Shown: one piece after another, positions 5,979 through 62,368 of the stretch
Layout: every line of letters starts with the position of its first letter
Numbering within the stretch: position 1 is the first letter of the stretch
Assembly (NCBI GenBank): GCA_020847695.1
Contig: JADLBP010000205.1
Location: 22,530 to 86,529 of the forward strand
Length of the DNA stretch: 64,000 bases
Source: Planctomycetota bacterium
GTDB lineage: Bacteria; Planctomycetota; UBA1135; GCA-002686595
Direction of reading: 5' to 3'
Position numbers and translations under genes: made by a program
Notes under the pieces: generated by a model
What the model saw: only the letters and a program-made list of their open reading frames with translations
Told to the model about the DNA's origin: nothing
The model's database searches: none

Positions 5979-6000
5979 TCGGAACACGGGAAAGCACCTC

Positions 6001-7562: not shown

Positions 7563-8035
7563 AGGAGCTCAAGACGCTGCTTCGACACCTCGAAGCGCAC
7601 TTGCAGGACGAGATCGCGGCGCAGGAGCGCACGCTCGCGTTGCTCGCCGACGAGGAGACCGCGTTGCGCGGCCGCGATCCGGCGCTCGTCCTCGAACGGA
7701 CGACGGCGCTCGAGCGCGAGCTCCAGGGCGGCGTCGCGCGCGCGCGGCGCCGCGACGAGCTGCTGACGGCGCTCGGGAACCTCTGGGGCGTGCCGGCGGC
7801 GACGCTGACGCTGACGAGCATCGCGGAACGCGCGGGCTCGGAAGGCGAGCGCGTGCTCCGGATGCGCGGTGAGCTGCGCGAACGCAGCGCGAAGAGCGTC
7901 AAGCTCGCGCGTCGCGTCGGAGCGCTCGCTCGCACGCACCAACGCTTCTTCTCGGACGTGCTTCAGACGCTCTTCGGTGAGCTCGGTGCGACCGACGCGC
8001 GCGTCGGCGGCCGTTTGGTGGACGCGGAGGCCTGA
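7559..8035 (+). CDS. flgN: Probable FlgK/FlgL export chaperone FlgN
   Basis: GTGA overlap with flgJ and directly precedes flgK. 158 aa all-helical protein with 'LLRHLEAHLQDEIAAQERTLALL'. Assigned mainly by position and composition. Confidence 0.55.
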   Translation: MKELKTLLRHLEAHLQDEIAAQERTLALLADEETALRGRDPALVLERTTALERELQGGVARARRRDELLTALGNLWGVPAATLTLTSIAERAGSEGERVLRMRGELRERSAKSVKLARRVGALARTHQRFFSDVLQTLFGELGATDARVGGRLVDAEA

Positions 8036-8037
8036 CC

Positions 8038-18079: not shown

Positions 18080-18658
18080 TCAGTCGCCGACGTCGAGTTT
18101 CTCGGCGAGCTTGGCGAGCGCGCGATGCAGCAGGACGCGCGTCGCGCCCTCGGTCCTGCCCATCGCCTCGGCGATCTCCTTGTGCGGCAGCCCGACCACG
18201 CGCGCGAGCGTGATCACCTCGCGCTCGTCGTCGCCGAGCTCGTCGAACGCCTTCTCGATGCGCGCGAGCTCTTCCTTCGTCATCGCGCGGCGACTGGGCG
18301 ACGACACGTTGCGGTACGCGTCGAGCAGCGCTTGCTCGTCTCCGACGACGCGCGCGGCCTCGCGCTTCTGCGCGCGCCAATGCTCGTCGCGCTTCTGCAG
18401 CTTGCGCAGCGCAGTGGCGTACAGCCAGTGCTTGAACCCTGTCTCGCCGCCGTACTTGAACGTCGAGAGGTTCTGGAGCACTTCGCGGCAGACCGACTGC
18501 GCGATGTCCGAGGCCGATTCGTGCGCGCGCACCGTCGGACCGGCGCGTAGCCGCACGAACGCGCGCAGCCCGGGCAGGTAGCGGCCGAGCAACGCGTCGA
18601 GGGCTGTCGCGTCGCCGCGCTGCGCGGACTCGATCAGGCGGCTGACGTCCTCGGCCAT
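18080..18658 (-). CDS. ECF-type RNA polymerase sigma factor (Ser/Thr-kinase-linked type)
   Basis: 192 aa, ATG at 18658. Region 2 'DIAQSVCREVL...FKHWLYATALRKL'; region 4 'LGDDEREVITLARVVGLPHKEIAEAMGRTEGATRVLLHRALAKL'. N-terminal 'DVSRLIESAQRGDATALDALL'. Confidence 0.85.
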   Translation of the reverse strand: MAEDVSRLIESAQRGDATALDALLGRYLPGLRAFVRLRAGPTVRAHESASDIAQSVCREVLQNLSTFKYGGETGFKHWLYATALRKLQKRDEHWRAQKREAARVVGDEQALLDAYRNVSSPSRRAMTKEELARIEKAFDELGDDEREVITLARVVGLPHKEIAEAMGRTEGATRVLLHRALAKLAEKLDVGD

Positions 18659-18737
18659 CCCTCGAATTCTAGCCCGGTCCCGCGGCGGCTTGCCTTGCCC
18701 CGGTCGGCGCGCGGGCGTGAAATGAACTGCCCGATCG

Positions 18738-25100: not shown

Positions 25101-25708
25101 CCAAGGAGTTCGATCTCTCTCGCGAAGGCGTGACCGACGTCGAGTTGAAGTGGCAGACGCGGGTGCTCGTGGTGACCGTTCGCGACGACGTCACGAACGA
25201 GCCCGTCGGCGACGCGGAAGTCATCTGCGTCGGCGAAGGCGAAGCCGGCTTCGCTCGGCAGACGACGAATCGCGATGGACGTGCGACCTTCCGTGTCATC
25301 CCGTCGGGAGCCGCGCGCCTGCGGTGCACGAAATCGGGCGTCGGAACGGCGCTCGGGATCGTCGCGCTCGAGCCGATCGCGAGCGCTTACGAAGCCGAGC
25401 TTCGACTCGAGTTCGCTCCGCGTTTCGCGTTCCGCATCTCGTTTCCCGCGGGTGTCGCGATCCCGGAGTCGCTGTGGTTCTGGATCGTCGATGCGAGCGG
25501 CGTCTCCCGCGAGAATCTGTCGTACGACCCCCCGCGCTCCCGCGAGGGCAAGTTCGCCTTCGAGACGCTTCCGCCGGGCCGCTACGAGCTGCGTGCGAGA
25601 GGCACGCACGGCGAGTTCGAGCCGATCCCGTTCGACCTGCCGGCCACGGGGGCGACCGACTTCGAGTTCGTCCTGCAACCGAGCGTCACACCCGCCGCGC
25701 AGCGATGA
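22124..25708 (+). CDS. ECF sigma factor domain fused to a TM helix and a large extracytoplasmic domain of CarboxypepD_reg-like repeats
   Basis: Residues about 1-190 hold sigma regions 2 and 4 ('[16 protein letters not shown]', '[44 protein letters not shown]'). Then TM '[17 protein letters not shown]', then repeated 'G.V.D..G.P.AG..V' units (for example '[22 protein letters not shown]'). Single uninterrupted 1194-codon frame with high GC3. Confidence 0.75.
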
Positions 25709-40928: not shown

Positions 40929-42311
<1,383 letters not shown>

Positions 42312-42314
42312 CTT

Positions 42315-43481
42315 CTAGCTCTTGGATTGGAAGGGGATGGAGATGCAGAAATCGGCGCCGCCCAGCGGGGCCGGTTGGGGGGAGAGTTCGACGCGACCGC
42401 CGTGCAGCACGGCGATCGTGTTGACCAGTGCGAGGCCGAGGCCGGTGCCGTCGGCGCGCGAGGTGAAGAACGGCTCGAGCACGCGAGCGGCGTGCTCCTT
42501 CGGCACACCCGGGCCGGCATCGGTGACGCGCAAGCAGACTTCGCCGACGCCGACGGTCGCGTCGACGTGGACGGCGCCGCCGTCGGGTTGGGCTTGGATC
42601 GCGTTCGCGATCAGGTTGCGCAGCGCTTGGCGCAGCTTGACGTAGTCGGCGTCGAAGCTCGGCGCCGCGGCGTCGACCGACTGCGTCACGCGCCAACGCT
42701 CGGGCCGTTCGAGGCCGAGCGTCGCTTCGCGGATCGCGTCGGCGACGAGCTCGCAGGCGCCGACGCGCTCGCGGCGGACCGCATCGGTGCGGGCGAGCGT
42801 CAACATGCTCCCGAGCACGCGATCGGCGCGCTGCACGCCTTCGACGATGCGGGCGGCGAGCTCGCGCTCGCGCGAACCCTCGCCGAGGCGCTTCTCGAGC
42901 AACGCCGCGAAGCCTTGGATCGCGTTCATCGGGTTGCGCAGCTCGTGCGCGATCCCGCTGGCGACGTTGCCGAGCGCCGCGAGCTTCTCCTGCGCGTGCA
43001 GCTTCGCGGAGAGGCGCGCGAACTCGGTGCGGTCGTCGACGATCGCGACGGTGCCGACGCGCGCGCCGTGGGATTCGATCGGCGAGCGCTTGCAGGCGAC
43101 GACGCGCGTGCTGCCGTCGGCGCATGCGAGCTCGAGCCCGTCGCCGGCCGCTTCGATTGCGGCGAGTCGCGCCGCGGAGCCGTCGCCGAGCCCGTTCGAG
43201 CCGTCGAGACCGACCAGCTCGCACGCCGCGCGGTTGATCCGGGCGACGCGCCCGTCGCGGTCGCGGACGATAACGCCGCTCGGCAGGGCCTGCAGGATCG
43301 CTTCGAGGTGCCGCGAGAGCTCGTCGAGCTCCGCGACCTTCGACGCGAGCTCGTTCTCGACGCGCTGCGCGCGCCGCTCGATCGCCTGGTAGCTCTCGAT
43401 CAGCCCCGCGCTCACCTCGGCGAAGGAGCGCATGGCCGCCTCGAGCTCGGCGGGCGACATCGGAGCGGTTTCGGCGCGCAT
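42315..43481 (-). CDS. Cytoplasmic PAS-containing sensor histidine kinase (FlrB/FleS-like by context)
   Basis: H-box 'IAHELRNPMNAIQGF', N-box 'ALRNLIANAIQA', 'VTDAGPGVP' and 'GTGLGLALV'. No TM segment. ATG 43481 avoids overlap with the upstream gene (alternative GTG at 43538). Confidence 0.85.
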   Translation of the reverse strand: MRAETAPMSPAELEAAMRSFAEVSAGLIESYQAIERRAQRVENELASKVAELDELSRHLEAILQALPSGVIVRDRDGRVARINRAACELVGLDGSNGLGDGSAARLAAIEAAGDGLELACADGSTRVVACKRSPIESHGARVGTVAIVDDRTEFARLSAKLHAQEKLAALGNVASGIAHELRNPMNAIQGFAALLEKRLGEGSRERELAARIVEGVQRADRVLGSMLTLARTDAVRRERVGACELVADAIREATLGLERPERWRVTQSVDAAAPSFDADYVKLRQALRNLIANAIQAQPDGGAVHVDATVGVGEVCLRVTDAGPGVPKEHAARVLEPFFTSRADGTGLGLALVNTIAVLHGGRVELSPQPAPLGGADFCISIPFQSKS

Positions 43482-43489
43482 GGTGGAGC

Positions 43490-44236
43490 TCACGGCTTCG
43501 CGACCTCCGTGCGGCGCGCTTGGAACTTGGTCTGCCACTCGAGGAAAGACGCGGCTTCCTTCGCGCGCTCGGCGTCCGGTCCGCCTTGCTTGGACTCGCT
43601 CGCTGCGCGATACGCGGCGAGAGCCTCGTCGCGCTTGCCGAGCTTCTCCAGGCAGCGGCCCTTCCAGTAGTTCGAGCTCGGATCCGCCGCCGCGTCGCCG
43701 ATCGCGGCGAGCGCTTCGGCGAAACGATCCTGCTTGTAGTAGGCGCGCACCAGCCGCGCGGTGTCGGCGACGTAGCCGTGCGTCTCGAACGACGCGGGCG
43801 CGTGGCGAGCTTGCGTGTCGCGTGCCGCGGGCTTGTCGCGCTTGGCGGGCGCCGTTTCGTGGCGCGCGTCCGCGACGCCCTGCGGGTCGTCGTCGACGTG
43901 GATCGGCGTCGGCCGAGCGCTCGGCGTCGTGCCGGGGCTCTGGAGGCCGTCGAACTTCGCTTGCAGCGCGTTGAGCTGGTCGCGCAGCTCGTCGCGGCGC
44001 AGATCGCGCTCGACATCGGTGCCGCTCGGCGTCTCGGTGAGGCGCAGCAGGTCCTTCAGCGCGCTCGGGTCCTTCGCCGCGAGACGCTTCTCGACGCCGG
44101 CGAGCTCGTCGATCGCCGCGACGGTCGCGCGCAGCGATTCGTCGAGCGACTTCGCGCCGTCGCCTTGCAGCGCGACGGCGGGCACGAGCAGCACGATCGC
44201 CGCTCCGACGTTGATCGCGAACGAGTGCTTCATCAT
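43490..44236 (-). CDS. Hypothetical secreted protein with coiled coil and C-terminal TPR-like repeats
   Basis: Signal-like 'MMKHSFAINVGAAIVLLVPAVALQ', then a coiled coil, then 'ARLVRAYYKQDRFAEALAAIG...YWKGRCLEKLGKRDEALAAYRAA'. ATGA overlap with the upstream gene. Confidence 0.55.
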   Translation of the reverse strand: MMKHSFAINVGAAIVLLVPAVALQGDGAKSLDESLRATVAAIDELAGVEKRLAAKDPSALKDLLRLTETPSGTDVERDLRRDELRDQLNALQAKFDGLQSPGTTPSARPTPIHVDDDPQGVADARHETAPAKRDKPAARDTQARHAPASFETHGYVADTARLVRAYYKQDRFAEALAAIGDAAADPSSNYWKGRCLEKLGKRDEALAAYRAASESKQGGPDAERAKEAASFLEWQTKFQARRTEVAKP

Positions 44237-45714
44237 CACAGTCGCCCCTGGTAGGCCTCGACGGCGGCGTCGAGACGGTCGTTGGCTTCGTACAGCTCGC
44301 CGGCGAGCACGTAGATCGCGCGACGGGCTTCGGGAGCGTGGAGGTCGGGGATCACGGAGCGCAGCGCGTCGATCGCGGCGTCGACGCCCTTCGCTTCGGC
44401 GAGCGCGCGGGCGTAGAGGCTCGCGACTTCGAGCAGCGCGGGCTCGTCGAGCTCGCGGCGCAGCTCGAAGATCGGCTTGATTACGCCGAGCGCGTCGATC
44501 GGCAGGCCGCCGGCGAGCAGACGGCGCGCGCGGGCGAGCCGCTCGTCGCGCTCTTCGGTCGGGCGGACGAGGTCGTCGAGGCCGAGCGCGGACGCGGCGC
44601 GTTGACGGATCGCGAGCGCGGTGTCGTCGGCGCCGTCGGCGTCCGCGAGACGGCTGATGAACATCGCGCCGAGCTCGTCGCCGGCATCCAGCGCGAGGCG
44701 AGCGGCTTGCGTGAACGCGTTCGCGCGCTCGTGGCCCTCCGTGGCGCGGCCGTAGCGCAGCCAAGCGAGCGAAGCCTGCGCGGGATCCTCGAGCGCCTCG
44801 ACGGTGCGGGCGCGCAGCTCGAGCAGCTCGACTTCGAACTCCTCGCGACGGCCGAGCCTCTCGAGGTAGTCGAGCGTCGCGCGCGCTTCCGGCGCACGAT
44901 CGGCGGCCAGCATCGCGCGCGCCCGGATCAGCTGACGGCGCTGGATCTCGACGGGCTCGGCGGCCGGCTCGTACGTGTCGACGACGTCGAGCATGTAGAA
45001 CGCGTGCTCGTGATCGCCTAGCAGCGCGTGGGCGCGAGCGAGCAGCAACCGCGCGCGGATCTCGTACGGGTGACGGCGATCGAGCCGCAGCAGGTCGGTC
45101 AGGCGCTGCACGACGCTCGCCCACTCGTGTTCGGCGGCGAGCAGCTCGGCCGAGCGCCACAGCGCGTCCGGGAGCTGGTCGGAATCGCGATGGCGCTGGA
45201 TCAGCGTCTCGTAGTGCGCGATCGCGGCCGGCAGGTTGCCGCGCGCTTCCTCGATCCGTGCTTGCGCGAGCTTCGCGGAGACCGCGCCCGGGTGATCCGG
45301 CCAGCGGCGTTGCGCGTTGAGGTACGTCGCGACCGCGAGGTTGCGCAGTTGCTCGACGTCCTCGTGGCGATCCTCGGTCGACACGACGCGCAGCGCGTTC
45401 GTGCGGAGCTCGGCTTGGCAACCGACCGAACCGAGGATGCGCGTCATCACGTCGCGCAGCTCGCGGTCCTCGAGGACGACCGTGACTTCCTGGTCCGCGT
45501 CGATCGCGTCGAGGCCCTCGACGTGCACGCCGAGCTGGATCGCGAGCGAACGCAAGAGCTCGCGCAGGTTCGAGCGCTGCGCGTGCACCGAGCACCACCA
45601 CTCGCCGTCGCGGCGTTCGACGTGGACTTCGTAGCCTTCGGCGGCGACAGGCGCGCCGGGGGCGACCGGCGTGAACGTCGCGGCGAACGCGAGGCAGAGA
45701 GCGAGCAGCTTCAC
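44236..45714 (-). CDS. Hypothetical secreted protein: STN/secretin-N-like small domain plus long TPR-like region
   Basis: GTG start with signal-like 'VKLLALCLAFAATFTPVAPGAPVAA'. 'SNLRELLRSLAIQLGVHVEGL...VTVVLEDRELRDVMTRILGSVG' resembles an STN-type fold. About 380 aa of helical repeats follow. GTGA overlap upstream. Confidence 0.55.
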   Translation of the reverse strand: MKLLALCLAFAATFTPVAPGAPVAAEGYEVHVERRDGEWWCSVHAQRSNLRELLRSLAIQLGVHVEGLDAIDADQEVTVVLEDRELRDVMTRILGSVGCQAELRTNALRVVSTEDRHEDVEQLRNLAVATYLNAQRRWPDHPGAVSAKLAQARIEEARGNLPAAIAHYETLIQRHRDSDQLPDALWRSAELLAAEHEWASVVQRLTDLLRLDRRHPYEIRARLLLARAHALLGDHEHAFYMLDVVDTYEPAAEPVEIQRRQLIRARAMLAADRAPEARATLDYLERLGRREEFEVELLELRARTVEALEDPAQASLAWLRYGRATEGHERANAFTQAARLALDAGDELGAMFISRLADADGADDTALAIRQRAASALGLDDLVRPTEERDERLARARRLLAGGLPIDALGVIKPIFELRRELDEPALLEVASLYARALAEAKGVDAAIDALRSVIPDLHAPEARRAIYVLAGELYEANDRLDAAVEAYQGRL

Positions 45715-46598
45715 TCGTGGCCTCCGCGGTCTTGGGTCTTCGTCTCGGCGGCGTGCACCGCGGCGCCGTCGTGCTCGCTCGGCGCCTTGGCCGCGCCGGA
45801 AGCGACCTGCGCCTCGGCTTGGAGACGGAACGAATCGGCGATCGTGAACGTCGCGCGCGCTTCGAGGTCGTCGCGCCGCGTCGGCTCCCAACGATCCGCG
45901 ACCGCGAGCAGGCCGTAGAGCAAGCGACGCGCGCGCTCGAAGTCGCCGCGCTCGATCGCCTCGTGCGCCGCTTCGAGCGTCTCCTCGCCTTCCGGTCGCA
46001 CGTCGAGTTGCGCGGGGATCCGCGGGTACTCGACGGCCGCCGCGTGGGTCGAGGGGGAGTTCCGATGACCGTTCGGCGCGTCGGGCTCGCCGCCCTCGTC
46101 GATCGCGACCGATCCGCCCGTGCGGGTGCCGAGCGATTGCTGCAGCGTGCTCATCGACTTCCACGTCAGGCCGATCAACGCGAGGTTCGCGATCGCGAAC
46201 AGCGCGAGTGCGGCGACCAAGAGCGGCGAGCTCTTGAGGTCGAACTTGACGCGCGGCGCGGCTTGCGCGGCCGGCGCCGGGGCTTGCGTCGTCGCGGCCG
46301 CGGCGGTCTTGTCGGCGGCGGGCGCGTTCGCCGCGGGCGTCGCGGGAGACGCATCGCCGGCGACGATCGGCGCGGCGGCGGGCGGCGCGACCGTGGTGCC
46401 GGGCGCGGGCCCGAGCACGGCGCTCATCGCTTCTTCGTTGAGGTTGGTGAAGACCTGCGTCGGCGCGGCGGCGGGCGCGATCGTCGCGGAGTCGCCGACG
46501 GCGACCTTGGGCTCGCTCAGCTCGTCGAAGCTGAAGAGGTCTTCCTCTTCGTCGATCGTCGGCTTGTGCGGCGCGGAGCCTTCGTGCGGGTTCGTCAC
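45711..46598 (-). CDS. Hypothetical single-pass membrane protein (acidic N-terminus, Ala/Pro-rich linker, TM, TPR-like C-terminus)
   Basis: 'DEEEDLFSFDELSE', an Ala/Pro-rich tract, TM 'LLVAALALFAIANLALIGL', and C-terminal 'LEAAHEAIERGDFERARRLLYGLL'. High GC3. Confidence 0.5.
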   Translation of the reverse strand: MTNPHEGSAPHKPTIDEEEDLFSFDELSEPKVAVGDSATIAPAAAPTQVFTNLNEEAMSAVLGPAPGTTVAPPAAAPIVAGDASPATPAANAPAADKTAAAATTQAPAPAAQAAPRVKFDLKSSPLLVAALALFAIANLALIGLTWKSMSTLQQSLGTRTGGSVAIDEGGEPDAPNGHRNSPSTHAAAVEYPRIPAQLDVRPEGEETLEAAHEAIERGDFERARRLLYGLLAVADRWEPTRRDDLEARATFTIADSFRLQAEAQVASGAAKAPSEHDGAAVHAAETKTQDRGGHE

Positions 46599-46601
46599 GA
46601 C

Positions 46602-47591
46602 TCAGCTCCAGAGAGCCACTTGAAGGCTCTTCTTGACCGTCGGGCCCGCGAGCATCCGACCGACGCTCACGGCGAGCGCGGGCGAGAGGTTGTAGCTCGG
46701 CTCGTCTTCGCCGCGCAGACCGGCGAGCACTCGCGCGGACATCTCGGGCGTCAGGTAGTCGAGCTCGGAGAGATCGATCGCCTCTTCCTCGTCGAACTGC
46801 ACGCGATACGCGGCGAAGCGCAGCGTGACGCGCGTGCCGCGACCGAGCGCGGCTTCGATGCGCAGGTCCTCGGCGAGCGCCGCGACGCGGGCGAGCCCGC
46901 TGTGCGCGCCGTCGTGGACGTCGGCGAGGCTGCCGACGGCGATGCCGATCGGATCGAGCCCCGAGCCTTGATCGGTGACCGTGACGACGAGCTCGCGCCC
47001 GTCGAGCTCCGCGCGCAGGTCGTACGAGCCCTCGCGCTTCGGGTAGGCGTGACGGAGGACGTTGTCGACGAGTTCGTGCGTCGCGCCGGCGATGCGAGCG
47101 CGCGTCGACGGCCCGAACGACCAGCGCACGAGCTGGGCGAGCAGCTCGCGCATCCCCGCGTCGAGGCCGTCCGCGTTCGCTCCGTAGCGGCGCGTGAACA
47201 CCGCGGCGGACTCGCGCGACGGCAGCGCGGCCTTCGGCGCGGCGCGTTCGACCGAAGCGACGACTTCGTCGAGGCCGCAGGGCTTGGACAGCACGTCGCG
47301 CAAGCCGACGTGCAGCGCAGCGCGGCAATCGTCGAAGCTCGGCGAGTCGGCGAGCAGCACCAACGCGGCGCGCGAGCCGCGGCGCTGGAGCTCGAGCGCG
47401 AGCTCGAGGCCCGGACGGTCGGCGAGCGCCGCGTCGATCACGATCACGTCGTGACCCGCGACCTGGAGCGCGTCGGCGCCGCTCGAGACCGTGGTCACTT
47501 GGTGACCGCGACGGCGCAACGCGGCGCCGACGGCGAGACCGATCGCGGGTTCGGCGAGCGCGAGCAGGACGCGCAACGTGACGGCGCTCAT
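46602..47591 (-). CDS. Receiver domain fused to an RsbW/SpoIIAB-type (anti-sigma Ser kinase-like) GHKL ATPase domain
   Basis: REC-like N-terminus ('VIVID', 'LSKP'). 'THELVDNVLRHAY', 'VTVTDQGSGLD' and 'GTRVTLRF' form a GHKL ATPase without a DHp/H-box. ATGA overlap with the upstream gene. Confidence 0.65.
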   Translation of the reverse strand: MSAVTLRVLLALAEPAIGLAVGAALRRRGHQVTTVSSGADALQVAGHDVIVIDAALADRPGLELALELQRRGSRAALVLLADSPSFDDCRAALHVGLRDVLSKPCGLDEVVASVERAAPKAALPSRESAAVFTRRYGANADGLDAGMRELLAQLVRWSFGPSTRARIAGATHELVDNVLRHAYPKREGSYDLRAELDGRELVVTVTDQGSGLDPIGIAVGSLADVHDGAHSGLARVAALAEDLRIEAALGRGTRVTLRFAAYRVQFDEEEAIDLSELDYLTPEMSARVLAGLRGEDEPSYNLSPALAVSVGRMLAGPTVKKSLQVALWS

Positions 47592-48286
47592 GCAGCCCTC
47601 CCTCGGGCCTGGCAAGCGATGCGGATGCGGACGCAGACCGAGTCGGTCGATGCGACCTCGAATGTTCCTTGCATGCGCAGGACCTCGCGTCGCGCGAGCT
47701 CGAAGCCGAGGCCGAGGCTCGCGTCGTTGTGCGAGCGCGGCGAACGCAGCGCGGCGAGGCGCGAACGGTCGCCGCCGCTGATCACGGAGAACGCCGCCGA
47801 ACCCGCTTCGACGCGCGCTTCGAGCAGCACGTCCTCGGCAGAGCCTTCCAGCGCGACGCGGACGACGTGGGCGAGCGCGGTCGACAGCAGCGCGCCGTCG
47901 ACCAGCAATTGCGGCGCAGCCGCCGGACGCGCGAGCGTGACGCGGACCGCGTCGTGTCGCGCGAGCTTGGCGACCGTGCTCTGCAGGATCTCCTCGAGCG
48001 AGCACTCGAGCGGCATCAACGGACGCGGCGCGGCGTACGCGGCGAGCGCTTCGACGTCGCGCGAGAGCCGCAGCACCTCGGCGAGCGCGCCCGAGAGCGT
48101 CTCGCGGCGCGGATCGTCGGCGCCGAGGTTCTTGGCCAGCGACTCCATCGACGCGCGCAACGCCGCGAGCGGCGTCTTGAAGATGCGCGTGACGGCGAGC
48201 CCGAGCTCCGCCGCTTGCGGAGTCGCTCGTGCCGCGACGGACGAACTTTCGTTCTCGTGCGCGCGTTCGTTCGGGGTGTCGACCAT
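47588..48286 (-). CDS. Histidine-kinase-like protein lacking the phospho-acceptor His (pseudo-HK)
   Basis: The H-box position reads 'AVTRIFKTPLAAL' (Arg in place of His). The N-box region 'LAHVVRVALEGS' lacks Asn. G2-like 'SLGLGFELARREV' is retained. ATG at 48286, 232 aa. Confidence 0.6.
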   Translation of the reverse strand: MVDTPNERAHENESSSVAARATPQAAELGLAVTRIFKTPLAALRASMESLAKNLGADDPRRETLSGALAEVLRLSRDVEALAAYAAPRPLMPLECSLEEILQSTVAKLARHDAVRVTLARPAAAPQLLVDGALLSTALAHVVRVALEGSAEDVLLEARVEAGSAAFSVISGGDRSRLAALRSPRSHNDASLGLGFELARREVLRMQGTFEVASTDSVCVRIRIACQARGRAA

Positions 48287-48312: not shown

Positions 48313-48327
48313 GCAAACCCGTTGCCA
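48313..48327 (-). promoter_or_regulatory. Sigma54-type promoter at the head of the minus-strand flagellar super-operon
   Basis: The minus strand reads TGGCAA-CGGGT-TTGC, with the exact GG-N10-GC spacing of TGGCAC-N5-TTGC. It lies 27 nt upstream of the ATG at 48286, inside a 176-bp intergenic gap. Confidence 0.5.
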
Positions 48328-48462: not shown

Positions 48463-49761
48463 TCAAGCGCCGAGCGAGAGGGCCTGGAGCTTGTTGTAGA
48501 GCGTCGCTCGGTTGATCCCGAGCAGCTCCGCCGCGCGGCTCTTGTTGCCGCCGACCTCGGCGAGCACGCGGCGGATCAACGCTTCCTCGAGCGCGCGCAG
48601 CGAACGATCGCCGAGCGGCAGGAACTCGCCCGCGGGCGCCGCGTCGCTCGCGGTGCGCAGCGCGAGGTCGGGCACGTCGACGAGCTCGTTGCGCGCGAAC
48701 AGCACCGCGCGTTCGACGACGTTCTCGAGCTCGAGCAAGTTGCCCGGCCAACGATGCGTCGCGAGCGCGTCGAGCGCGGCGGGCGTGAACGCGCGCACCG
48801 GCCGGCCGCACGCCGCGGCCTTGCGGCGCAGGACGTCCTGCGCGAGCTCGAGCACGTCCTCGCCGCGCTCGCGCAACGCGGGGACGGGCAGGCTGAGCAC
48901 GTTCAGGCGGTAGAAGAGGTCCTCGCGGAACGCGCCGCGGCCGACTTGCTCCTCGAGTCTGCCGCCGGTCGCCGCGATCACGCGCACGTCGGCGCGGAGC
49001 TCGTCCGTCGCGCCGTTTTGGCGATACGTGCGGTCCTGCAGCAGCCGCAGCAACCGCGCCTGCACCGCGAGCGGCAGGTGATCGACGTCGTCGAGGTAGA
49101 GCGTGCCGCCTTCGGCCGCCGCGAGCAGGCCCGCGCGGGCCCCGAAGAGCGTCTCTTCGAGCGCGGCGGGGTCCGCGGCGGCGACGCGGCAGACGACGAA
49201 CGGAGCAGAGGCTCGCGCCGAGCGTATATGGATCGCGCGCGCGACCCGTTCCTTCTCGACGCCGGTCTCGCCGCGCAGCAGCACCGTGGTGCGCGGCGTG
49301 CGCGCGACGCGTTCGACTTGTTCCAGCACGCGACGCAGCGCGGGCGAGCGACCGATCAGCGCGGTGCCGGCAACGTTTTCTAGCTCGTGGGCGAGCCGCG
49401 CACGCTCGCGCTCGAGGCGGAGCACGCGTTCGGCGCGCTCGGCAGCCGCGAGCACGCGCTCGCGCGAGCAAGGCGTCTCGAGGACGTCGCACGCGCCGCG
49501 TCCGAGCGCCGCGAGCGCGCGTTCGAGCTCCCCGGCGCCGGCGAGCACGACGGTGGCGGTCCCGGTCGCGAGCGCGACGTCCGCGAGCTCGACCGCGGCG
49601 AGCACGAGCTCGGCCCCGTCCTCGGCGAGGCCGCGACGGAGCTCGTTCGCATCGGCGACCGCGCGCACCGAGTGCCCGGGGCGGGCTGCGTCCGCCAGCG
49701 CGCCGAGCAGCCCCTCGCGCACGACGGGGTCGCCGTCGGCGATCAGCACGCGGAAGGTCAT
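48463..49761 (-). CDS. FleQ/FlrA-like NtrC-family regulator with degenerate receiver and degenerate AAA+ domain (no GAFTGA)
   Basis: The pseudo-receiver has 'LVLAAVEL' at the phospho-Asp position. The P-loop is 'GETGVEKE'. 'LFGARAGLLAAAEGGTLYLDD' lacks the GAFTGA loop. 'VRVIAATGG' is retained, as is the Fis HTH 'GGNKSRAAELLGINRATL'. ATG at 49761. Confidence 0.8.
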   Translation of the reverse strand: MTFRVLIADGDPVVREGLLGALADAARPGHSVRAVADANELRRGLAEDGAELVLAAVELADVALATGTATVVLAGAGELERALAALGRGACDVLETPCSRERVLAAAERAERVLRLERERARLAHELENVAGTALIGRSPALRRVLEQVERVARTPRTTVLLRGETGVEKERVARAIHIRSARASAPFVVCRVAAADPAALEETLFGARAGLLAAAEGGTLYLDDVDHLPLAVQARLLRLLQDRTYRQNGATDELRADVRVIAATGGRLEEQVGRGAFREDLFYRLNVLSLPVPALRERGEDVLELAQDVLRRKAAACGRPVRAFTPAALDALATHRWPGNLLELENVVERAVLFARNELVDVPDLALRTASDAAPAGEFLPLGDRSLRALEEALIRRVLAEVGGNKSRAAELLGINRATLYNKLQALSLGA

Positions 49762-49907
49762 GGCCGACTTGTCGACGCGATCGCGCGGAACCCGAAGTTC
49801 TTGCCGACTCGGCCCGGAAGCGCGGACCGCGCCGCGGAAAAAGAGTCCGGAAGACGCCCCGGACGGCCCCGCCGACGCGCTCTCGCCCCGAAAAGCGCGC
49901 GCTTCCC

Positions 49908-49934
49908 TCAAGCGCCCCCGGGGTGCTCCGAGAA
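49908..49934 (+). promoter_or_regulatory. Sigma28-like promoter candidate upstream of the first flagellin gene
   Basis: TCAA-N15-TCCGAGAA (6/8 in the -10 element), 87 nt upstream of the ATG. It shares the 'TCAAGC' -35 context with the motA candidate. Confidence 0.3.
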
Positions 49935-50020
49935 CCCGGCGTGCTCGAGCGAGCCGCAAGGCAAGCCAAGAGCACGTTCAGCTCAGCGACCCCTCAGAAC
50001 CCACCACCCAGGAGCCATCC

Positions 50021-50907: not shown

Positions 50908-51249
50908 ACTAGACCGCTCGGAGCCAGGAGCGCCTCGCGCTCTCGATCTTTCTAAACCCGCTTCGCCCTTCGAACGTCAACCGGACGACGTGCCCACTCG
51001 TCCGCGCACGCACGCTCGATCGGGCGATCCCGCCGCGCCTTCGCGTGGTCTCGCATCTCGTGCCAACGATGCGTGACCGACTCCGCGAGCGCGGCGGTCT
51101 CGACGAACGTCCGGACTCGTCCGCGCGTCCGCTCGCGTGATCCCAGCGACTTCTCTTCCGCCAGGGTTACGTGACGAGCGCGCAACGCGGGACCGGATGG
51201 ACTCTGTCACTTTCCCTTTCCCTTCGAATCCAACCAAGGAACGCAAGTC

Positions 51250-53568: not shown

Positions 53569-54912
53569 TCACCAGCGCCAACCGTTCGGTCCGTCCGCGT
53601 CGGCGGGATCGAACCAGCTGTCGAGCAGCTCGAACCAGTTCTGCACGACGCCGTCGCCGAACTCCGCGCCGTCGGCGCACCACGCGAGCCGCCCGAAGCC
53701 GCGCTTGCTCGCCGGTTGCACCGCGCTGTACCACGCGAGGCGCTGCCAGTCGGTCGATCCGTCGGACTCGCGCGCGCCGTCGGGCAACACGATCGAAGCT
53801 CCGGACGAATCGCGGACGAAGCTCTCGGGTGACTGCACCGCGAACGACGCCGTCACCAGCCCGTCGACCGCCGCGGCGAGCGCGCGAGCGCGTTGACGCG
53901 TCGTCTCGCTGAACAGCGGCTCGGCGGCGATGCGTCGCGCGAGATCGTGGGCGTCGAAGTACGGCATCGAGCCCCACGCGTCCTCGCCGGCGGGGAAGTA
54001 GTCGAGCACGCCGCGTCGGTCGTCGCTGCCGCGCAGCGCTTCGAGCGGCGCTCGCTCGCGCTCGTTCGCGATCGACACCGCGAGTGCGTCGGTCGCGGAC
54101 TTGACCTCGCCGGCGCGCGTGAGATCGAAACACGCCCAGGCCTCGAAGCCGAGGTCGACGCCGCGCTCGGCCCATTGCTTGCGCCCGGCGGCGATCGACT
54201 CGAGCGCGAGCCCGCCGAACGCGAGCGCGTCGACGTCACCCGAGCCGAGCGCTCGCCCGAGCGCGCCGAAGAGCAGGTCGTAGCGCCACGGCGCGGAGAC
54301 CGACGCCGAAGCGACCATCGCGTGCGCGCCGAAGCGTTCGGGACCGGGCCTCAACTCGTACGCGAGCTCGACCGAGCCCATCGAGCACACGTCGAAGCCG
54401 ATGAAGTCGACCGATTCCTCCGGACCGAGCTCTGCGGTGAGCTCGCCGGGGAACAGCGGATCGCCGAAGCTGGATTCGTCGAACGCGAACGCGCGACCGT
54501 CGCCGTGGCTGTAGAAGACGAGCGCGGTGTGTCGCGCCGGGCAGAGTGCCTTGCCGAAGCGCACGAAGTCGCGCACGAGCTTCGGATCGCCGGTGTTCGC
54601 CTCCCAACGTCCGCGTAGGGTCGCGGGGAGCGCGTCGCCGCCTTCGAGACGCTCGAAGCGCTCGCGACCGAGTCGGAAGAGGCGGGTGTCGGCGAAATCC
54701 TCGCCCAGCGCGCTCTCGCCCTTCGCCCAGCGCGGGCTGCGATCGACCAGCGCCACGAGCTCGATCCCCGCGGTGCCCGCGAGCCCGACTTGCATCGCGG
54801 CGAGGTCGCCGATCAGCGTCTCCTCGCTCGAGTTGTCGCCCGCGCCGTAGACGAGCACGGTCCATTCGGCGGGCGCGGGCGGCGGAGAAACGGGAGCTTG
54901 CAACGGGATCAT
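53569..54912 (-). CDS. Clostripain-family (peptidase C11) cysteine protease homolog
   Basis: 'WTVLVYGAGDNSSEE', 'LVFYSHGDG' (catalytic His context) and 'DFIGFDVCSMGSVELAYEL' (catalytic Cys context). 447 aa. No N-terminal signal peptide evident. Confidence 0.8.
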   Translation of the reverse strand: MIPLQAPVSPPPAPAEWTVLVYGAGDNSSEETLIGDLAAMQVGLAGTAGIELVALVDRSPRWAKGESALGEDFADTRLFRLGRERFERLEGGDALPATLRGRWEANTGDPKLVRDFVRFGKALCPARHTALVFYSHGDGRAFAFDESSFGDPLFPGELTAELGPEESVDFIGFDVCSMGSVELAYELRPGPERFGAHAMVASASVSAPWRYDLLFGALGRALGSGDVDALAFGGLALESIAAGRKQWAERGVDLGFEAWACFDLTRAGEVKSATDALAVSIANERERAPLEALRGSDDRRGVLDYFPAGEDAWGSMPYFDAHDLARRIAAEPLFSETTRQRARALAAAVDGLVTASFAVQSPESFVRDSSGASIVLPDGARESDGSTDWQRLAWYSAVQPASKRGFGRLAWCADGAEFGDGVVQNWFELLDSWFDPADADGPNGWRW

Positions 54913-56361: not shown

Positions 56362-56469
56362 TCGTTTCCGGAAAGACCTTCCGGCAGCCGCTTCTCGCGC
56401 GAAGTCCTTGCGCGCACTTCGTTCGCGCGCCGCGGCGTGGAAAGAGCGCGGAGAAAGACGAGCTCGCGC

Positions 56470-56497
56470 TCACGCGCTCCCGGGACCGCTCCGATAA
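56470..56497 (+). promoter_or_regulatory. Sigma28 (FliA)-type promoter upstream of fliD
   Basis: TCAC-N16-TCCGATAA (7/8 in the -10 element), 42 nt upstream of the fliD ATG and after the fliC4 hairpin. Confidence 0.45.
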
Positions 56498-56538
56498 CTG
56501 CCCCGGCGATCCGTCTGCGGACGGAGCCGAGCACAACC

Positions 56539-58422: not shown

Positions 58423-58782
58423 GTGAGCGACTCGCTGCGAGGCTTCGACGGGCTGCAGAAGCGCCTGACCGAGCTCGTGACCGCGCTCGAGCGCGGTGAC
58501 GTCGACCCGCGGGCGCTCGAAGGCGTGCTGTACTCGGTGCGGATCGAGTTCGAGCGGCTCCAGTCGAACGCTTTCGGCCTCCACGCGCGCACGTCGGGCG
58601 AGAGCGAAAGCCGTGAAGGCGCCGCGCGCGAGGTGCAGCGCTTGGTCGCGGTCGCTCTCCAGCTCGCCGCGAAGCGACGCGACGAGGTCGCGTTCGAGCT
58701 CGATCGCACGCGCGAAGCGAAGAAGCGCCTCGGGTTCTACCGGGACGCGACGACCGGCGACTCCTGCGACATCGCGGGTTGA
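58423..58782 (+). CDS. Hypothetical helical protein in the FliT position after fliS
   Basis: GTG start 11 nt after fliS. High GC3. 119 aa, predicted helical ('LQKRLTELVTALERGD', 'VQRLVAVALQLAAKRRDEVAFELDRTREAKK'). No motif recognised. Confidence 0.45.
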   Translation: MSDSLRGFDGLQKRLTELVTALERGDVDPRALEGVLYSVRIEFERLQSNAFGLHARTSGESESREGAAREVQRLVAVALQLAAKRRDEVAFELDRTREAKKRLGFYRDATTGDSCDIAG

Positions 58783-58935: not shown

Positions 58936-60111
58936 TCAGCCGCGCGCCGCGTCGTCCGGCGTCCAGCGGCGCCCGACGATCACGCGCACGGGCTCGATCA
59001 CGTCCGTGTAGCGGTTCGCGCGCACGTTGTCGAAGAACGTCGAGTTGATCTCGTGACCCTTGCGGGCGATCAACGCGCCGCTCTTGGTGCGCAGGTCCTC
59101 GACCAGCACCATGCCGGGCCGCAACGCGAGCAGCGGCAGCTCCTCGAGGATCTCGTTGGTCTCGCGCACCGCGAGCGTCGCGCGGAACAGCTCGACGAGC
59201 GCTTGCGCGTAACCGCGCGGCTTCGTGCGCAGGAGCTCGAAGATCTCCGGTTGCTTCATGCCGCGCCATTCCAGGCGCTCGAAGTCGTTGGCGATCCGCA
59301 ACACGCCGGCGCCGAGCACGAAACGATCGGCGGGGAGGTCGACGGTGCCCGGTGGGACGAGCTCGCGAGCGTGCTCGTAGTCGTCGACCAACCGCTTGAC
59401 GCCGTCGAGGCGCGGCACGGCACGGAAGAGCTCCGCGACCAGCCGCGGACCGCGTGCGAGCGACTGGACCTCGGCTTCGTTGAGCGGCTCGCCGGCGTAG
59501 AGCTTGTCGATCGTCGTCGGCGTCAGGAGCACCGCGCCGAGCTGCAGCAGCATCGACGCGACCTCGAGCTCCCACGGATCAGGGAACTTCAGCGCGGCCG
59601 CGAGCATCGTCACGTGGCGACGCACCTGGTTCGCGTGGCCGAACGCCGCCGGGTTCGTCAGCGCGAGGATGTCCATCAAGAGCCCGATCGTGCCGACGAG
59701 CGTGCGCTCGCGCAGCTCGCGCTCGGCGATCAGGTGCTCGTGCTGCTCGACGCCGTCGCGCAGGGCTTCGAGCAGCGTCGGGTGATCGCACGGCTTGCGC
59801 AGGATGCGGAAGACGCCCGCGCGGTTGACGGCGAGCATCGCGGACTCGAGGTCGGCCTGGCCGGAGAGCAGGATGCGCGTCGTGTTCGGAGCGAGCTCGC
59901 GCGCGCGGTGGAGGAGCTCGGTGCCGCTCATCCCGGGCATGCGCATGTCGGAGACGACGACCGCGAACTCCGGCGGCCGGCCGAGCGCGTCGAGCGCTTT
60001 CTCCGGCAGCTCCGCGGTGACCACGTCGAACTCGCGTCGCAACAGCACCGAGAGCCCGATCAGGACGCGCGCTTCGTCGTCGACGCAGAGGATGCGCGGC
60101 TTCTCGGTCAC
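58936..60111 (-). CDS. Response regulator with HD-GYP-like output domain lacking the HD dyad
   Basis: REC 'ILCVDDE', 'VVVSDMRMPGMSG', 'LRKP'. Output domain 'FGHANQVRRHVTMLAAAL' followed by 'ASMLLQLGAVLL' where HD-GYP domains have '..LLHDIGK'. GTG at 60111 (GTGA overlap upstream). Confidence 0.75.
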   Translation of the reverse strand: MTEKPRILCVDDEARVLIGLSVLLRREFDVVTAELPEKALDALGRPPEFAVVVSDMRMPGMSGTELLHRARELAPNTTRILLSGQADLESAMLAVNRAGVFRILRKPCDHPTLLEALRDGVEQHEHLIAERELRERTLVGTIGLLMDILALTNPAAFGHANQVRRHVTMLAAALKFPDPWELEVASMLLQLGAVLLTPTTIDKLYAGEPLNEAEVQSLARGPRLVAELFRAVPRLDGVKRLVDDYEHARELVPPGTVDLPADRFVLGAGVLRIANDFERLEWRGMKQPEIFELLRTKPRGYAQALVELFRATLAVRETNEILEELPLLALRPGMVLVEDLRTKSGALIARKGHEINSTFFDNVRANRYTDVIEPVRVIVGRRWTPDDAARG

Positions 60112-61310
60112 GCGAGCTCCCCGCTGAGCGTTGCGATCACGGGCGCGACCGCGCTGCGCCACGCGGCGGCGTCCGGCGCAGCGCCGAGGATCTCGAAGGC
60201 GAGCGGTGAGACGCCGTGGAAGACGTCACGGCCGTCGTCGCGCAGCAGCGTGTTCTCCGCCGCCTGCGTGGCGACGTGGGTCCACGCGCACGCGGGCGTC
60301 GCCGATTCGCCGACGAGCTCGCCGTGGTGGCCCGCGACCGCGTGCGCGATCGACCGAGGGAGCCCCCACGTCTCGATCAGCGCGGTGCCGGCGTCGATGT
60401 GGGTGAAGCCGAACGCCGCGGTTTCGAGACTGCGCCAGTCACCGCGCCCGGTGGCGAGCGCGGTCTCGACCTCGGAGAGCTTGCGCGGCTCGCGCAGCGC
60501 GATCAGCAGCTTGCCCAAGTCGTGCAGCATGCACGCGGTCGCGATCGATTCGCGCAGCGCCGGCTGGGGCACCAACGCGCGCGCGATCGCGGCGGCGGCG
60601 AGCCCGTCGTGCTGGATCGCATCGACGGTGGCGGCGGCCTCCGGGCCGGCGCCGCCGAACACCTCCGCGGCGAGCACGAGGTCGGAGATCGTCGACGCGC
60701 CGAGGTACGTGCACGCGGAGTGGATGCTCGAGATATGGCGCGGCAGGCCGAAGAACGCCGAGTTCACCACCTGCAGGATCTTCGCGACCATCGCGGGGTC
60801 CTGGCCGACGAGCTCGGCGATCTCGGTGATGCCCGCGGAACCGTCGCGCGTCAGTCGCTCGAGCTCCAAGTAGAGAGCGGGGGCCGACGGCAAGTGATCG
60901 ATCCCACCGACGAACACGTGGGCGCGCGCCTTGGAGTCGACGGTCAGGCTCGCGAGCGAGGCCTCGATGATCGCCACGAGCCCCTCGGAGTCGAACGGCT
61001 TGTTCAAGAAGCGGTGCGCGACCTTGACCGCGCGCACGGAGGCGTCGCGGTTGGTGTGGCCGGAGAGCACGATGCGCACGGTGTGCGGTTGGAGCTCCAT
61101 CGCGCGCGTGAGGACCTCCGCGCCGTCGATGTGAGGCATGCGCATGTCGCTGACGACGATGTCGACGTGTTCCCGCTTGAGCATGGCGATCGCAGCCTGA
61201 CCGGTGGGGCAGAACGTCATGTCCCAACGGTCGCGGTGCTTGCGCAGCATATCGCGGATCGAGACGAGGACCATCGGCTCGTCATCGACGAAGAGGATGC
61301 GCGGCTTCAC
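60108..61310 (-). CDS. Response regulator with HDOD output domain
   Basis: REC 'ILFVDDE', 'IVVSDMRMPHIDG', 'LNKP'. HDOD 'PAMVAKILQVVNSAFFGLPRHISSIHSACTYLG' and 'MLHDLGKLL'. GTG at 61310 (GTGA overlap upstream). Confidence 0.85.
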   Translation of the reverse strand: MKPRILFVDDEPMVLVSIRDMLRKHRDRWDMTFCPTGQAAIAMLKREHVDIVVSDMRMPHIDGAEVLTRAMELQPHTVRIVLSGHTNRDASVRAVKVAHRFLNKPFDSEGLVAIIEASLASLTVDSKARAHVFVGGIDHLPSAPALYLELERLTRDGSAGITEIAELVGQDPAMVAKILQVVNSAFFGLPRHISSIHSACTYLGASTISDLVLAAEVFGGAGPEAAATVDAIQHDGLAAAAIARALVPQPALRESIATACMLHDLGKLLIALREPRKLSEVETALATGRGDWRSLETAAFGFTHIDAGTALIETWGLPRSIAHAVAGHHGELVGESATPACAWTHVATQAAENTLLRDDGRDVFHGVSPLAFEILGAAPDAAAWRSAVAPVIATLSGELA

Positions 61311-62368
61311 GCTGCGACCGCGGGTTCGGGTTGCGCGAACGGGAGCCAGACTCGAAACGTCGTGCCGACGTCGACCTGGGACTCGAAGCCGATCTTGCCG
61401 TGGTGTCGGTCGACGACGATCGCGCGGGACAACGCGAGCCCTTGTCCGGTCCCGCGCCCGACCTCCTTGGTCGTGAAGAACGGATCGAACACACGCGCGC
61501 GCACGGACTCCGGGATCCCGCAGCCGTCGTCCCGGACCTCGATCCAGACGCCGTCGTCGCTTTCGCGCGTAGTGACTACGATGTGGCCGCGCTTGCCTTG
61601 CGGAGTCCACCGGTCTTCGATCGCGTGCGCCGCGTTGACGACGAGGTTCAGGATCACCTGATTGACCTCGCCGGGGTGGCAGAGGATCTCGCGCAGCGGC
61701 GCGAGCTCGGTGGCGACGTCCGCGCAGTACTTGTACTCGTTGGTCGCGACCACCAGCGTGCTCTTGACGCCGTGGTTGACGTCCGCGGCGACCATCTCGG
61801 TCTGGTCGGGATGCGCGAAGTCCCGCATCGCGCGGACGATCACCGAAACGCGAGAGATGCCGTCCTGCACCCGCGCGAACGCCGCGGGGACCTGCTCGCG
61901 GACGTAGGCGAGGTCGGCGGCGACGCGCGCGGCGTCGAGCCGACCGACGAGCTCGTCGAGCTCCGGCTTCCTCGCGAGCTCCTCCGCGAGCCCATCGACG
62001 ACGCTCAGGAACGTCGCGACGTCCTCGAACGCGGTGCGCAGGAACGTGACGCTGTCGCCGACGTACTGGATCGGCGTGTTGATCTCGTGCGCGATGCCGG
62101 ACGCGAGCTGGCCGACCGATTCGAGCTTCTGCGCGAGCCGGAGCTCGGATTCGACGCGCTCGCGATCGTGGATCTCCTTGGTCAGGCGCGCGTTGCGCTC
62201 CAGCAGCTCGCGCGACGCGAGTTCCATCGAGCGTTCGAGCAACTGACGGTCCTGCGCCGCTTGTTCGTAGGCCTCGCCGACCGCGGCGAGGAAGCGTTGC
62301 CAATCCGCCGGCGGCCGTTCGACCGACGCGTCGAAGCGCCGCAACTGACGCTCGAGGAGCCGGTTCAT
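61307..62368 (-). CDS. Soluble sensor histidine kinase
   Basis: Coiled coil, then H-box 'GIAHEINTPIQYV', N-box 'NLVVNAAHAI', 'VRDDGCGIP' and 'GTGQGLALS'. No TM segment. ATG at 62368 (ATGA overlap with the FIST gene). Confidence 0.85.
   Translation of the reverse strand: MNRLLERQLRRFDASVERPPADWQRFLAAVGEAYEQAAQDRQLLERSMELASRELLERNARLTKEIHDRERVESELRLAQKLESVGQLASGIAHEINTPIQYVGDSVTFLRTAFEDVATFLSVVDGLAEELARKPELDELVGRLDAARVAADLAYVREQVPAAFARVQDGISRVSVIVRAMRDFAHPDQTEMVAADVNHGVKSTLVVATNEYKYCADVATELAPLREILCHPGEVNQVILNLVVNAAHAIEDRWTPQGKRGHIVVTTRESDDGVWIEVRDDGCGIPESVRARVFDPFFTTKEVGRGTGQGLALSRAIVVDRHHGKIGFESQVDVGTTFRVWLPFAQPEPAVAA

Follow-up and report, generated by a model that had tools for sequence, protein, structure and literature searches.

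A predicted pseudo-histidine kinase and a receiver-fused RsbW/SpoIIAB-type protein form a candidate regulatory switch at the head of a flagellar operon in Planctomycetota

We investigated a 64,000-nucleotide stretch (hereafter the window) of contig JADLBP010000205.1, from a Planctomycetota metagenome-assembled genome (MAG; assembly GCA_020847695.1), and in particular two overlapping genes, here called A and B, that head a flagellar operon. Our analyses indicate that gene A encodes a pseudo-histidine kinase, and that gene B encodes a receiver fused to a GHKL domain of the RsbW/SpoIIAB type rather than to a classical histidine kinase catalytic domain. Phospho-chemistry seems to have been lost on both sides of this pair, while a kinase docking face, an ATP-binding domain of the anti-sigma type, and a novel C-terminal tail appear to have been kept. 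We propose, at a probability of roughly 40%, that A and B represent a degenerate two-component pair co-opted to switch an anti-sigma module through protein-protein contact, with sigma28 as its most likely target.

Gene A scored below threshold for both histidine kinase models of Pfam (HisKA, 17.2 bits, cut-off 26.9; HATPase_c, 13.1 bits, cut-off 26.4), and no PAS domain was detected in it by Pfam. Its AlphaFold2 model (predicted local distance difference test, pLDDT, 84; predicted template modeling score 0.75) comprised a dimerization and histidine phosphotransfer (DHp) hairpin (residues 25–53 and 60–85) and an alpha/beta catalytic and ATP-binding (CA) domain, and Foldseek matched it to histidine kinase cores, with ZraS first (E 2.5e-11), followed by RetS, DivL, and CpxA (E 1e-11 to 1e-8 over the four). 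As an internal control for the alignment of gene A, we used BLASTP against the true PAS-domain histidine kinase (PAS-HK) of the same operon, which has the H-box GIAHELRNPMNAIQG. FKTPLAALRA of A paired with LRNPMNAIQG of the PAS-HK, so that Arg34 falls under the phospho-His; Val of A took the position of the N-box Asn (ANAIQ vs. RVALE), and Ser occupied the G1 Asp column, with ISGGD in place of DxGxG. Given that the phospho-His, the N-box Asn, and the G1 box are all missing, A is predicted to be unable to autophosphorylate. A preliminary description of this DNA had proposed a histidine kinase-like protein with Arg at the phospho-His position and an N-box without Asn; the alignment gave Arg and Val at the two columns where an ordinary histidine kinase has its conserved His and Asn, and the structural matches and homologs of A likewise agree with that proposal.

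Word-indexed searches recovered 28 homologs of A and 20 of B, and 33 non-identical A homologs were compared. The His column held Arg, Gln, or Glu in 32 of them, the N-box Asn was retained in seven, and a complete G1 box was found in none of the 33. Thr or Asn stood at His+4, the HisKA phosphatase position, in 21 of 33 as counted from the listing. Nine of the 20 invariant columns of A fell in helix alpha1 of the DHp domain (P39–A45, E48, and S49), where the run PLAALRASMES is invariant. These positions include His+7, +8, +11, and +15, which are canonical positions contacting and selecting the cognate receiver in histidine kinase–response regulator specificity. The notion that the entire A family lacks the His was refuted by a single homolog in locus L004 (9288–10004), which has His at the H-box column (ALAHGLDLPLAALRAS), the N-box Asn, and F-box/G2 motifs, along with a broken G1 box (DNSPR). 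The partner B of this homolog has lost the acidic pocket and the Lys. From this case, the ancestral A/B pair was probably a working kinase and regulator.

Gene B passed the Pfam cut-offs for Response_reg (40.1 bits, cut-off 30.2) and HATPase_c_2 (42.3 bits, cut-off 27.4), the latter scoring above HATPase_c (33.5 bits). In a profile search of the Protein Data Bank (PDB) with the GHKL part of B, the leading matches were SpoIIAB (E 4e-8, full length), RsbW (E 1e-7), and Rv1364c, a fused multi-domain Rsb-type protein. Histidine kinase CA domains scored far below SpoIIAB and RsbW in this search, and the match also spanned the N-terminal beta1-alpha1 element. A Foldseek search with the AlphaFold2 model of B (pLDDT 80 overall, ~90 in the receiver) aligned SpoIIAB at TM-scores of 0.79–0.83, and its top overall match was LvrC (PDB 9qih, E 7e-13). 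The receiver of B scored highest against NtrC/GlrR-type receivers. The assignment of this ATPase to the anti-sigma type, made in the preliminary description, is therefore upheld by both the Pfam ranking and the PDB matches, and all the motifs quoted there (VIVID, LSKP, ALAEP, THELVDNVLRHAY, VTDQGSGLD, and GTRVTLRF) are present in B. A split histidine kinase, in which the GHKL domain of B would phosphorylate the DHp domain of A, was ruled out, since A lacks the His and the GHKL domain of B matches the anti-sigma class from end to end.

The two domains of B differ in how they are conserved. Across an alignment of 117 full-length B family representatives, the GHKL residues were nearly invariant, both in the N-box (E173 in 114, N177 in 113, and H181 in 109) and in the G1 box (D207 in 113, G209 in 115, and G211 in 111), as well as at G232 (115) and R235 (116). 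In the receiver, the phospho-acceptor Asp was retained in 62 of the 117 sequences (17 have Glu and 16 Ala) and the Lys in 58, and the set of an acidic residue at position 14, D53, and K103 was retained in 33, these cases having been checked by eye. The B protein of the window belongs to this minority: it retains D53, K103, and E14, and has Ala for both the first Asp of the acidic pocket (A13) and the beta4 Thr (A81). Given that ATP-site residues other than H181 are kept in 111–116 of 117 sequences vs. 62 of 117 for the phospho-accepting Asp, selection appears to act on the GHKL module and not on phosphotransfer.

Gene B ends in a tail of ~65 aa, which the preliminary description had called simply acidic. 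An acidic motif (D-L-S/T-E/D-L-D-Y/W-L-x-P) does lie there, in a linker modeled with low confidence, but it is followed by three helices carrying an invariant G311-R312, and the tail as a whole is a conserved family-specific module; most members end in ALWS. Conservation over the same 117 sequences was high at D273 (107), Ser/Thr275 (105; 84 Ser and 21 Thr), acidic residue 276 (114), D278 (112), P282 (109), G311 (115), and R312 (117), and the hydroxyl residue 275 sits between acidic flanks in a predicted flexible linker just after the GHKL domain. We searched exhaustively with a profile of the tail against 1.84 billion representatives at the 50% identity level. Except for three repetitive proteins, all 159 matches were C-terminal in proteins of ~310–350 aa or in fragments of these. 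Because the tail was found just at the C-terminus of such proteins, it appears specific to the B architecture, and the same search ruled out a domain common to other architectures. A truncated STAS domain, considered because DLSELDYL resembles DLSxVxfiDS, was also ruled out, as AlphaFold2 predicts three helices and no strand and Pfam gave no match. A PDB sequence search with the tail yielded no meaningful match.

We found the cassette in synteny at 12 distinct Planctomycetota MAG loci, counting the window itself, over which the identity of B falls from 96% to 29%. Order and orientation were conserved: a flagellin gene, a gene for an NtrC-family enhancer-binding protein (EBP), here EBP1, A, B, the membrane protein gene C, two genes for TPR-like proteins, the PAS-HK, an NtrC-type EBP, and flgB-flgC-fliE-fliF. 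The linkage of the homologs to flagellar genes, which the preliminary description had named as a check, thus holds with one exception, locus L013, discussed below. All source names of A and B homologs that bear an organism are Planctomycetes or Planctomycetota; the remainder are metagenomic. Genes A and B share the junction GCTGCATGAGCG on the minus strand, a 4-nt ATGA overlap in which the TGA stop of A shares bases with the ATG of B. The overlap had been described before and was found in 7 of 7 loci with listed gene calls. G+C at third codon positions (GC3) was 0.87 in gene A and 0.90 in gene B; both are real genes, placed as in the preliminary description. Gene C, for which no Pfam or NCBIfam family matched, encodes an invariant N-terminal EDLFxFD after an acidic run, followed by a disordered linker, one transmembrane helix, and a conserved periplasmic helical domain, and the TPR-like proteins have N-terminal hydrophobic leaders that look like signal peptides by eye. 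EDLFxFD of C and DLSELD of the B tail follow the same D-L-x-x-[F/L]-D pattern; the two might be rivals for one binding site, or the resemblance might be due to chance.

The sigma54-type motif TGGCA-N6-TTGC has a single exact match in the 64 kb, which is the promoter before gene A. The A homologs of at least five other loci (L003, L005, L007, L009, and L015) are likewise preceded by the motif, which is further conserved as a pseudo-translation, RLATxLP, in over-long gene models. Together with the conserved gene order, this substantiates the earlier suggestion that the pair opens a sigma54-driven flagellar operon. EBP1 of the window has a deletion of the GAFTGA loop that contacts sigma54, a Walker A motif reading GETGVEKE, and a weak receiver. 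The EBP1 orthologs of L001 and L004 are degenerate likewise, while those of L003, L005, and L006 retain GESGxGKE and GAFTGG, and EBP1 lacks a receiver in several lineages. Judging from these motifs, EBP1 has turned into a pseudo-EBP in some lineages. Given this degeneration, the activator acting at the sigma54 promoter of the operon is probably the FlrC-like protein that the operon itself encodes.

Pfam detected no FliA-type sigma factor, FlgM, or STAS domain in any of the ~55 called genes of the window, where the only sigma factors are two of the extracytoplasmic function (ECF) type (18080–18658 and the start of 22124–25708). The preliminary description was therefore correct that fliA, flgM, and STAS genes are missing from the window. 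However, the missing fliA is uninformative, given that fliOPQR, flhB, flhA, flhF, and flhG are also missing and that fliA adjoins this block in relatives: in two related contigs with the cassette, a fliOPQR-flhB-flhA-flhF-flhG block comes after fliS, and a 243-aa sigma factor follows flhG. This sigma factor passes the NCBIfam models FliA/WhiG TIGR02479 (231 bits, cut-off 190) and FliA (205 bits, cut-off 201), and also has a weak, below-cut-off match to the SigB/F/G model; SpoIIAB acts on sigmaF and RsbW on sigmaB. In a related contig, L017, a TGGCA-N6-TTGC motif just upstream of fliO (9438–9452, plus strand) suggests that the export-gate operon ending in fliA may also be sigma54-dependent in this lineage.

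Within the window, sigma28-like promoters of the general form CTCAnG, 15–16 nt, CCGA[G/T]AAC precede flagellin-1 and fliD, and resemble the sigma28 consensus TAAA-N15-GCCGATAA. No such motif is present before the other three flagellin genes of the window. The strict consensus TAAA-N14-16-GCCGATA had zero matches in the window; what was found instead is this relaxed motif, conserved across loci. Nine further distinct loci have it before the orthologous flagellin gene, in L001, L003, and L004 an equivalent CCGATAAC motif precedes fliD, and similar motifs occur in L009 and L014, where the downstream genes are unchecked. From the promoters before flagellin-1 and fliD and from FliA in the relatives, sigma28 is very likely present in the organism and is a plausible target. 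No FlgM match was found among the small genes around fliA in the two relatives or near flgN in the window, and neither A nor B matched the FlgM profile. No STAS, PP2C, or FlgM was detected in the window or in the 20 kb around fliA in the two relatives.

In the mechanism that we propose, B would be the effector, an ATP-binding anti-sigma or Ser-kinase module of the RsbW/SpoIIAB class, and its activity would be set by the N-terminal (pseudo)receiver and the C-terminal module. By analogy with DivL and DivK, A would dock on the receiver of B and set the state of B, and the pair would work mainly by protein contact rather than by phosphotransfer. The sigma54 promoter would drive A and B along with the early basal-body genes, and B would hold sigma28 (FliA, encoded elsewhere) early and free it upon a signal, which could be phosphorylation by the PAS kinase of the operon in members with the Asp, or input from the membrane protein C. 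What we infer here is that A docks on B, that sigma28 is the target, and what the signal is and which way it acts; sigma28 is the most likely target because early sigma54-driven expression coincides with sigma28-type late promoters and no detectable FlgM.

Several observations weigh against this proposal. FlgM, being small and poorly conserved, could escape a profile search, and the genome was covered only in part. Moreover, the G2 box of B is G-L-A and not G-x-G, and some members have a very short ATP lid, which leaves the kinase activity of B uncertain. Finally, locus L013, in a MAG of 59% G+C, is the lone exception to flagellar synteny, lacking an A homolog as well as any flagellar gene within 6 kb. 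There (5851–8370), a B homolog with a fully canonical receiver lies directly upstream of a FlrC-like activator, which hints that B is linked to sigma54 activators instead. The arrangement is possibly a remnant after flagellar gene loss. The FlrC-like activator of L013 is itself degenerate, with GAFTGA lost and Walker B reading EE. The neighbors in L013 include GcpE and SIS genes, which in the window border the flagellar cluster.

A more elaborate form of the proposal, which as a whole we consider rather improbable, is that the checkpoint of this lineage no longer depends on secretion of FlgM but on a self-contained partner switch in the cytoplasm. B would then be an ATP-dependent RsbW-type anti-sigma28 factor whose tail, through DLS/TELD, would serve as a pseudo-substrate or antagonist in cis, A would lock or unlock the pseudo-receiver, and C, with an N-terminal motif like that of the B tail, would relay the state of flagellar assembly in the periplasm.

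Among the alternatives, B could instead be a Ser/Thr kinase for an unlinked STAS antagonist or for Ser/Thr275 of its own tail. In this cascade, the substrate of B would control an anti-sigma factor, for example a divergent FlgM, and A and the receiver would tune kinase activity. The near-invariant N-box and G1 residues are enzyme-like and would suit such a role, as would the placement of a hydroxyl residue between acidic flanks on a flexible linker after the kinase domain, and Rv1364c among the GHKL profile matches. SypE of Vibrio fischeri, which acts with SypA, is a receiver-bearing RsbW-like kinase connecting two-component signaling to partner switching. A further precedent is the HptB-HsbR-HsbA-FlgM system of Pseudomonas, in which a protein of this kind joins the same two processes in the control of flagellar sigma28 (PMC5085249, PMC6482189). 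However, HsbR, SypE, and CrsR belong to a three-domain type in which a PP2C (SpoIIE) phosphatase domain accompanies the receiver and the RsbW-like kinase; HsbR and SypE act on an adjacent STAS partner, and FlgM is present in the Pseudomonas system. Here, none of the three was found within the regions searched, a PP2C/SpoIIE domain had no Pfam match in B at E ≤ 1, and no phosphatase is encoded for resetting the switch. With a helical tail that is not STAS-like and a degenerate G2 box in addition, we judge this cascade to be rather improbable.

No better placed is a role in the sigma54 pathway, in which A, B, or both would bind EBP1, the FlrC-like protein, or sigma54 as anti- or co-activators, and would tune class II/III flagellar transcription rather than sigma28. 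Two EBPs flank the pair in every locus, the FlrC-like EBP is the sole conserved neighbor of B in L013, and the receiver of B most resembles those of NtrC and GlrR. The lack of GAFTGA and of Walker A from EBP1 in some lineages would also suggest regulated or unconventional action. NifL, a non-phosphorylating histidine kinase-like protein with a GHKL domain, offers a precedent by inhibiting an EBP, NifA. NifL has PAS sensor domains and a nucleotide-binding GHKL domain, however; A lacks any PAS domain, and its degenerate ATP site is without the binding motifs. The GHKL domain of B belongs to the anti-sigma class throughout, N-terminal beta1-alpha1 included, and the EBP1 receiver is missing in several lineages although the DHp face of A is invariant. 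The argument from L013 is weakened in turn by the degeneration of its EBP, which may be a deletion remnant. On balance, a target in the sigma54 pathway seems doubtful.

Less probable still is that the pair handles phosphate. The PAS kinase would then phosphorylate both the FlrC-like activator and the receiver of B, the His-less A would drain or block the latter branch, and FlrBC signaling would be shaped thereby, with the GHKL domain and the tail secondary. Some kinases retain phosphatase activity without the His, and a Thr or Asn at the phosphatase position is common among A homologs, as noted above. D53, K103, and E14 in the B protein of the window would also fit. Yet, given that the acceptor set is kept in only 33 of 117 sequences vs. 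near-invariant GHKL and tail residues, phosphate handling is not likely to be the conserved function. Last, that A and B are non-functional, decaying two-component remnants, as the catalytic residues gone from A and from many B receivers might suggest, is highly improbable and contradicted by the conservation pattern, with frames, 4-nt overlap, operon order, and DHp, GHKL, and tail motif blocks intact from 96% to 29% identity in many MAGs, and with confident AlphaFold2 models of both proteins.

Returning to the proposed protein-protein switch, its components have partial counterparts in known systems. The closest is LvrC of Leptospira interrogans, described in 2026 as a Rec-regulated putative anti-sigma factor with a receiver and a Bergerat fold (PMC13269768). 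It has the same two-domain core as B, a receiver fused directly to an RsbW-like domain. However, the LvrC receiver is canonical and phosphorylated by a real kinase, LvrB, whereas the partner of B is predicted to be dead and most receivers of the family lack the acceptor set; LvrC has not been reported as flagellar, no counterpart of the ~65-aa tail is described, and sequence similarity to the GHKL domain of B is weak (profile E 0.04). SpoIIAB and RsbW of Bacillus belong to the HATPase_c_2 subclass and have N-box and G1 motifs as in B, but they are stand-alone proteins of ~145 aa whose genes sit beside those for their sigma factor and for a STAS antagonist; B, in contrast, carries a receiver and a tail, lacks both neighbors, and has a degenerate G2 box. 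DivL and RetS, both among the Foldseek matches of A, share with it a DHp and CA fold without a usable phospho-His, and in Caulobacter DivL reads out a receiver protein by DHp binding (PMC4211667). DivL and RetS are large sensors with many domains, whereas A (232 aa) consists of no more than a DHp and a CA domain; its ATP site is degenerate too, and its gene is translationally coupled to that of the presumed receiver partner. B would resemble FlgM in its proposed role, holding sigma28 until early assembly advances, and in being co-expressed with early genes, as flgM is in some hierarchies. FlgM is small, disordered, and secreted, whereas B is predicted to be folded and ATP-binding, has 329 aa, is not plausibly exported, and has no sequence or structural relation to FlgM.

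Our literature searches found no description of the A/B cassette. Receiver-fused RsbW-like proteins (HsbR, SypE, and LvrC) and pseudo-histidine kinases (DivL and RetS) were already known. What appears new is that a bare, dead kinase and a Rec-Bergerat protein are obligate, translationally coupled partners, together with the family-specific tail, the fixed place at the head of a flagellar operon, and the apparent absence of FlgM. The timing of flagellar gene expression is a textbook morphogenetic checkpoint for which few solutions are known besides FlgM secretion. This lineage-wide cassette sets an ATPase of the anti-sigma class at the head of a flagellar operon, in genomes that use sigma54 and sigma28 promoters and in which FlgM was not detected. 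If B controls sigma28, it would represent a second, export-independent way of coupling assembly to late gene expression, and would provide a physiological role and a target sigma factor for the recently described Rec-Bergerat (LvrC-type) class. The family would also illustrate, in nature, how a kinase/receiver pair can lose its phospho-chemistry and yet retain the docking interface.

The window has a G+C content of ~70%; genes were called by GC3 bias and annotated with Pfam. The main features are listed in Table 1. On the minus strand, from 49761 down to 29379, EBP1 is followed by the sigma54 promoter, A, B, C, the two TPR genes, the PAS-HK, the NtrC-type EBP, and flgB. The run continues with flgC, fliE, fliF, fliG, fliH, fliI, a weak FliJ-like open reading frame below the Pfam cut-off, and motA, and then with two OmpA-domain (MotB-like) genes, a sub-threshold FliL-like gene, and two genes with FliM/FliN C-terminal domains. 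Further flagellar genes are encoded on the plus strand toward either end of the window: flgD to flgL at the left end, and four flagellin genes, fliD, and fliS at the right.

Table 1. Positions in the window of the A/B cassette, its domains, and associated promoter elements.
Feature	Coordinates	Strand	Basis or remark
EBP1, NtrC-family protein	48463..49761	-	Upstream of the sigma54 promoter
sigma54-type -24/-12 element TGGCAACGGGTTTGC	48313..48327	-	~27 nt upstream of gene A start codon
Gene A, predicted pseudo-histidine kinase, 232 aa, soluble, no sensor domain	47588..48286	-	Pfam, AlphaFold2, alignments
Gene A, DHp domain (residues 25–85)	48032..48214	-	
Gene A, degenerate CA domain (residues 93–224)	47615..48010	-	
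Gene B, receiver + GHKL + tail, 329 aa	46602..47591	-	
Gene B, receiver domain (residues 6–118)	47238..47576	-	Pfam Response_reg
Gene B, RsbW/SpoIIAB-type GHKL (Bergerat) domain (residues 129–262)	46806..47207	-	HATPase_c_2, PDB profile, Foldseek
Gene B, family-specific C-terminal module (residues 263–329)	46605..46805	-	Tail-only profile search, alignment
Gene C, bitopic membrane protein	45711..46598	-	Always after B
Two TPR-like proteins (44236–45588 and 43490–44236)	43490..45588	-	Conserved cassette members
FlrB/FlrC-like pair, bona fide	40929..43460	-	Directly upstream of flgB
PAS-HisKA-HATPase_c kinase	42315..43460	-	
REC-sigma54 AAA+-HTH activator	40929..42311	-	
sigma28-like promoter CTCAAG-N15-TCCGAGAAC	49907..49935	+	Before flagellin-1 (ATG 50021)
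sigma28-like promoter CTCACG-N16-TCCGATAAC	56469..56498	+	Before fliD (56608)

Some further observations concern other parts of the window. Near the flagellin genes, short inverted repeats with the loop CGTGCCAA occur at 51059 and 55373 (plus strand), ~115–190 nt upstream of two of them, and similar inverted repeats lie upstream of flagellins in L001 and L003; these could be terminators of the preceding genes, regulator sites, or RNA elements. Between the third and fourth flagellin genes, on the opposite (minus) strand, lies a gene (53569–54858) of the clostripain family (peptidase C11). Regarding the two ECF sigma factors, one is divergent from a 936-aa Ser/Thr protein kinase (18080–21599), and the other occupies the beginning of a 1194-aa frame with many CarboxypepD_reg repeats (22124–25708), which may be two genes or a fused sigma/anti-sigma-like protein.

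After fliS, a gene for a 119-aa protein without a family match (58423–58782, plus strand) is present in the window and in 4 of 4 checked fliS-bearing loci (L001, L003, L004, and L018), and by its position may encode a FliT-like chaperone. Beyond the fliS region of the window, an operon-like run on the minus strand (58936–62368) encodes REC-HD_5 and REC-HDOD proteins and a histidine kinase; in L001 and L004, fliOPQR is found at this place.

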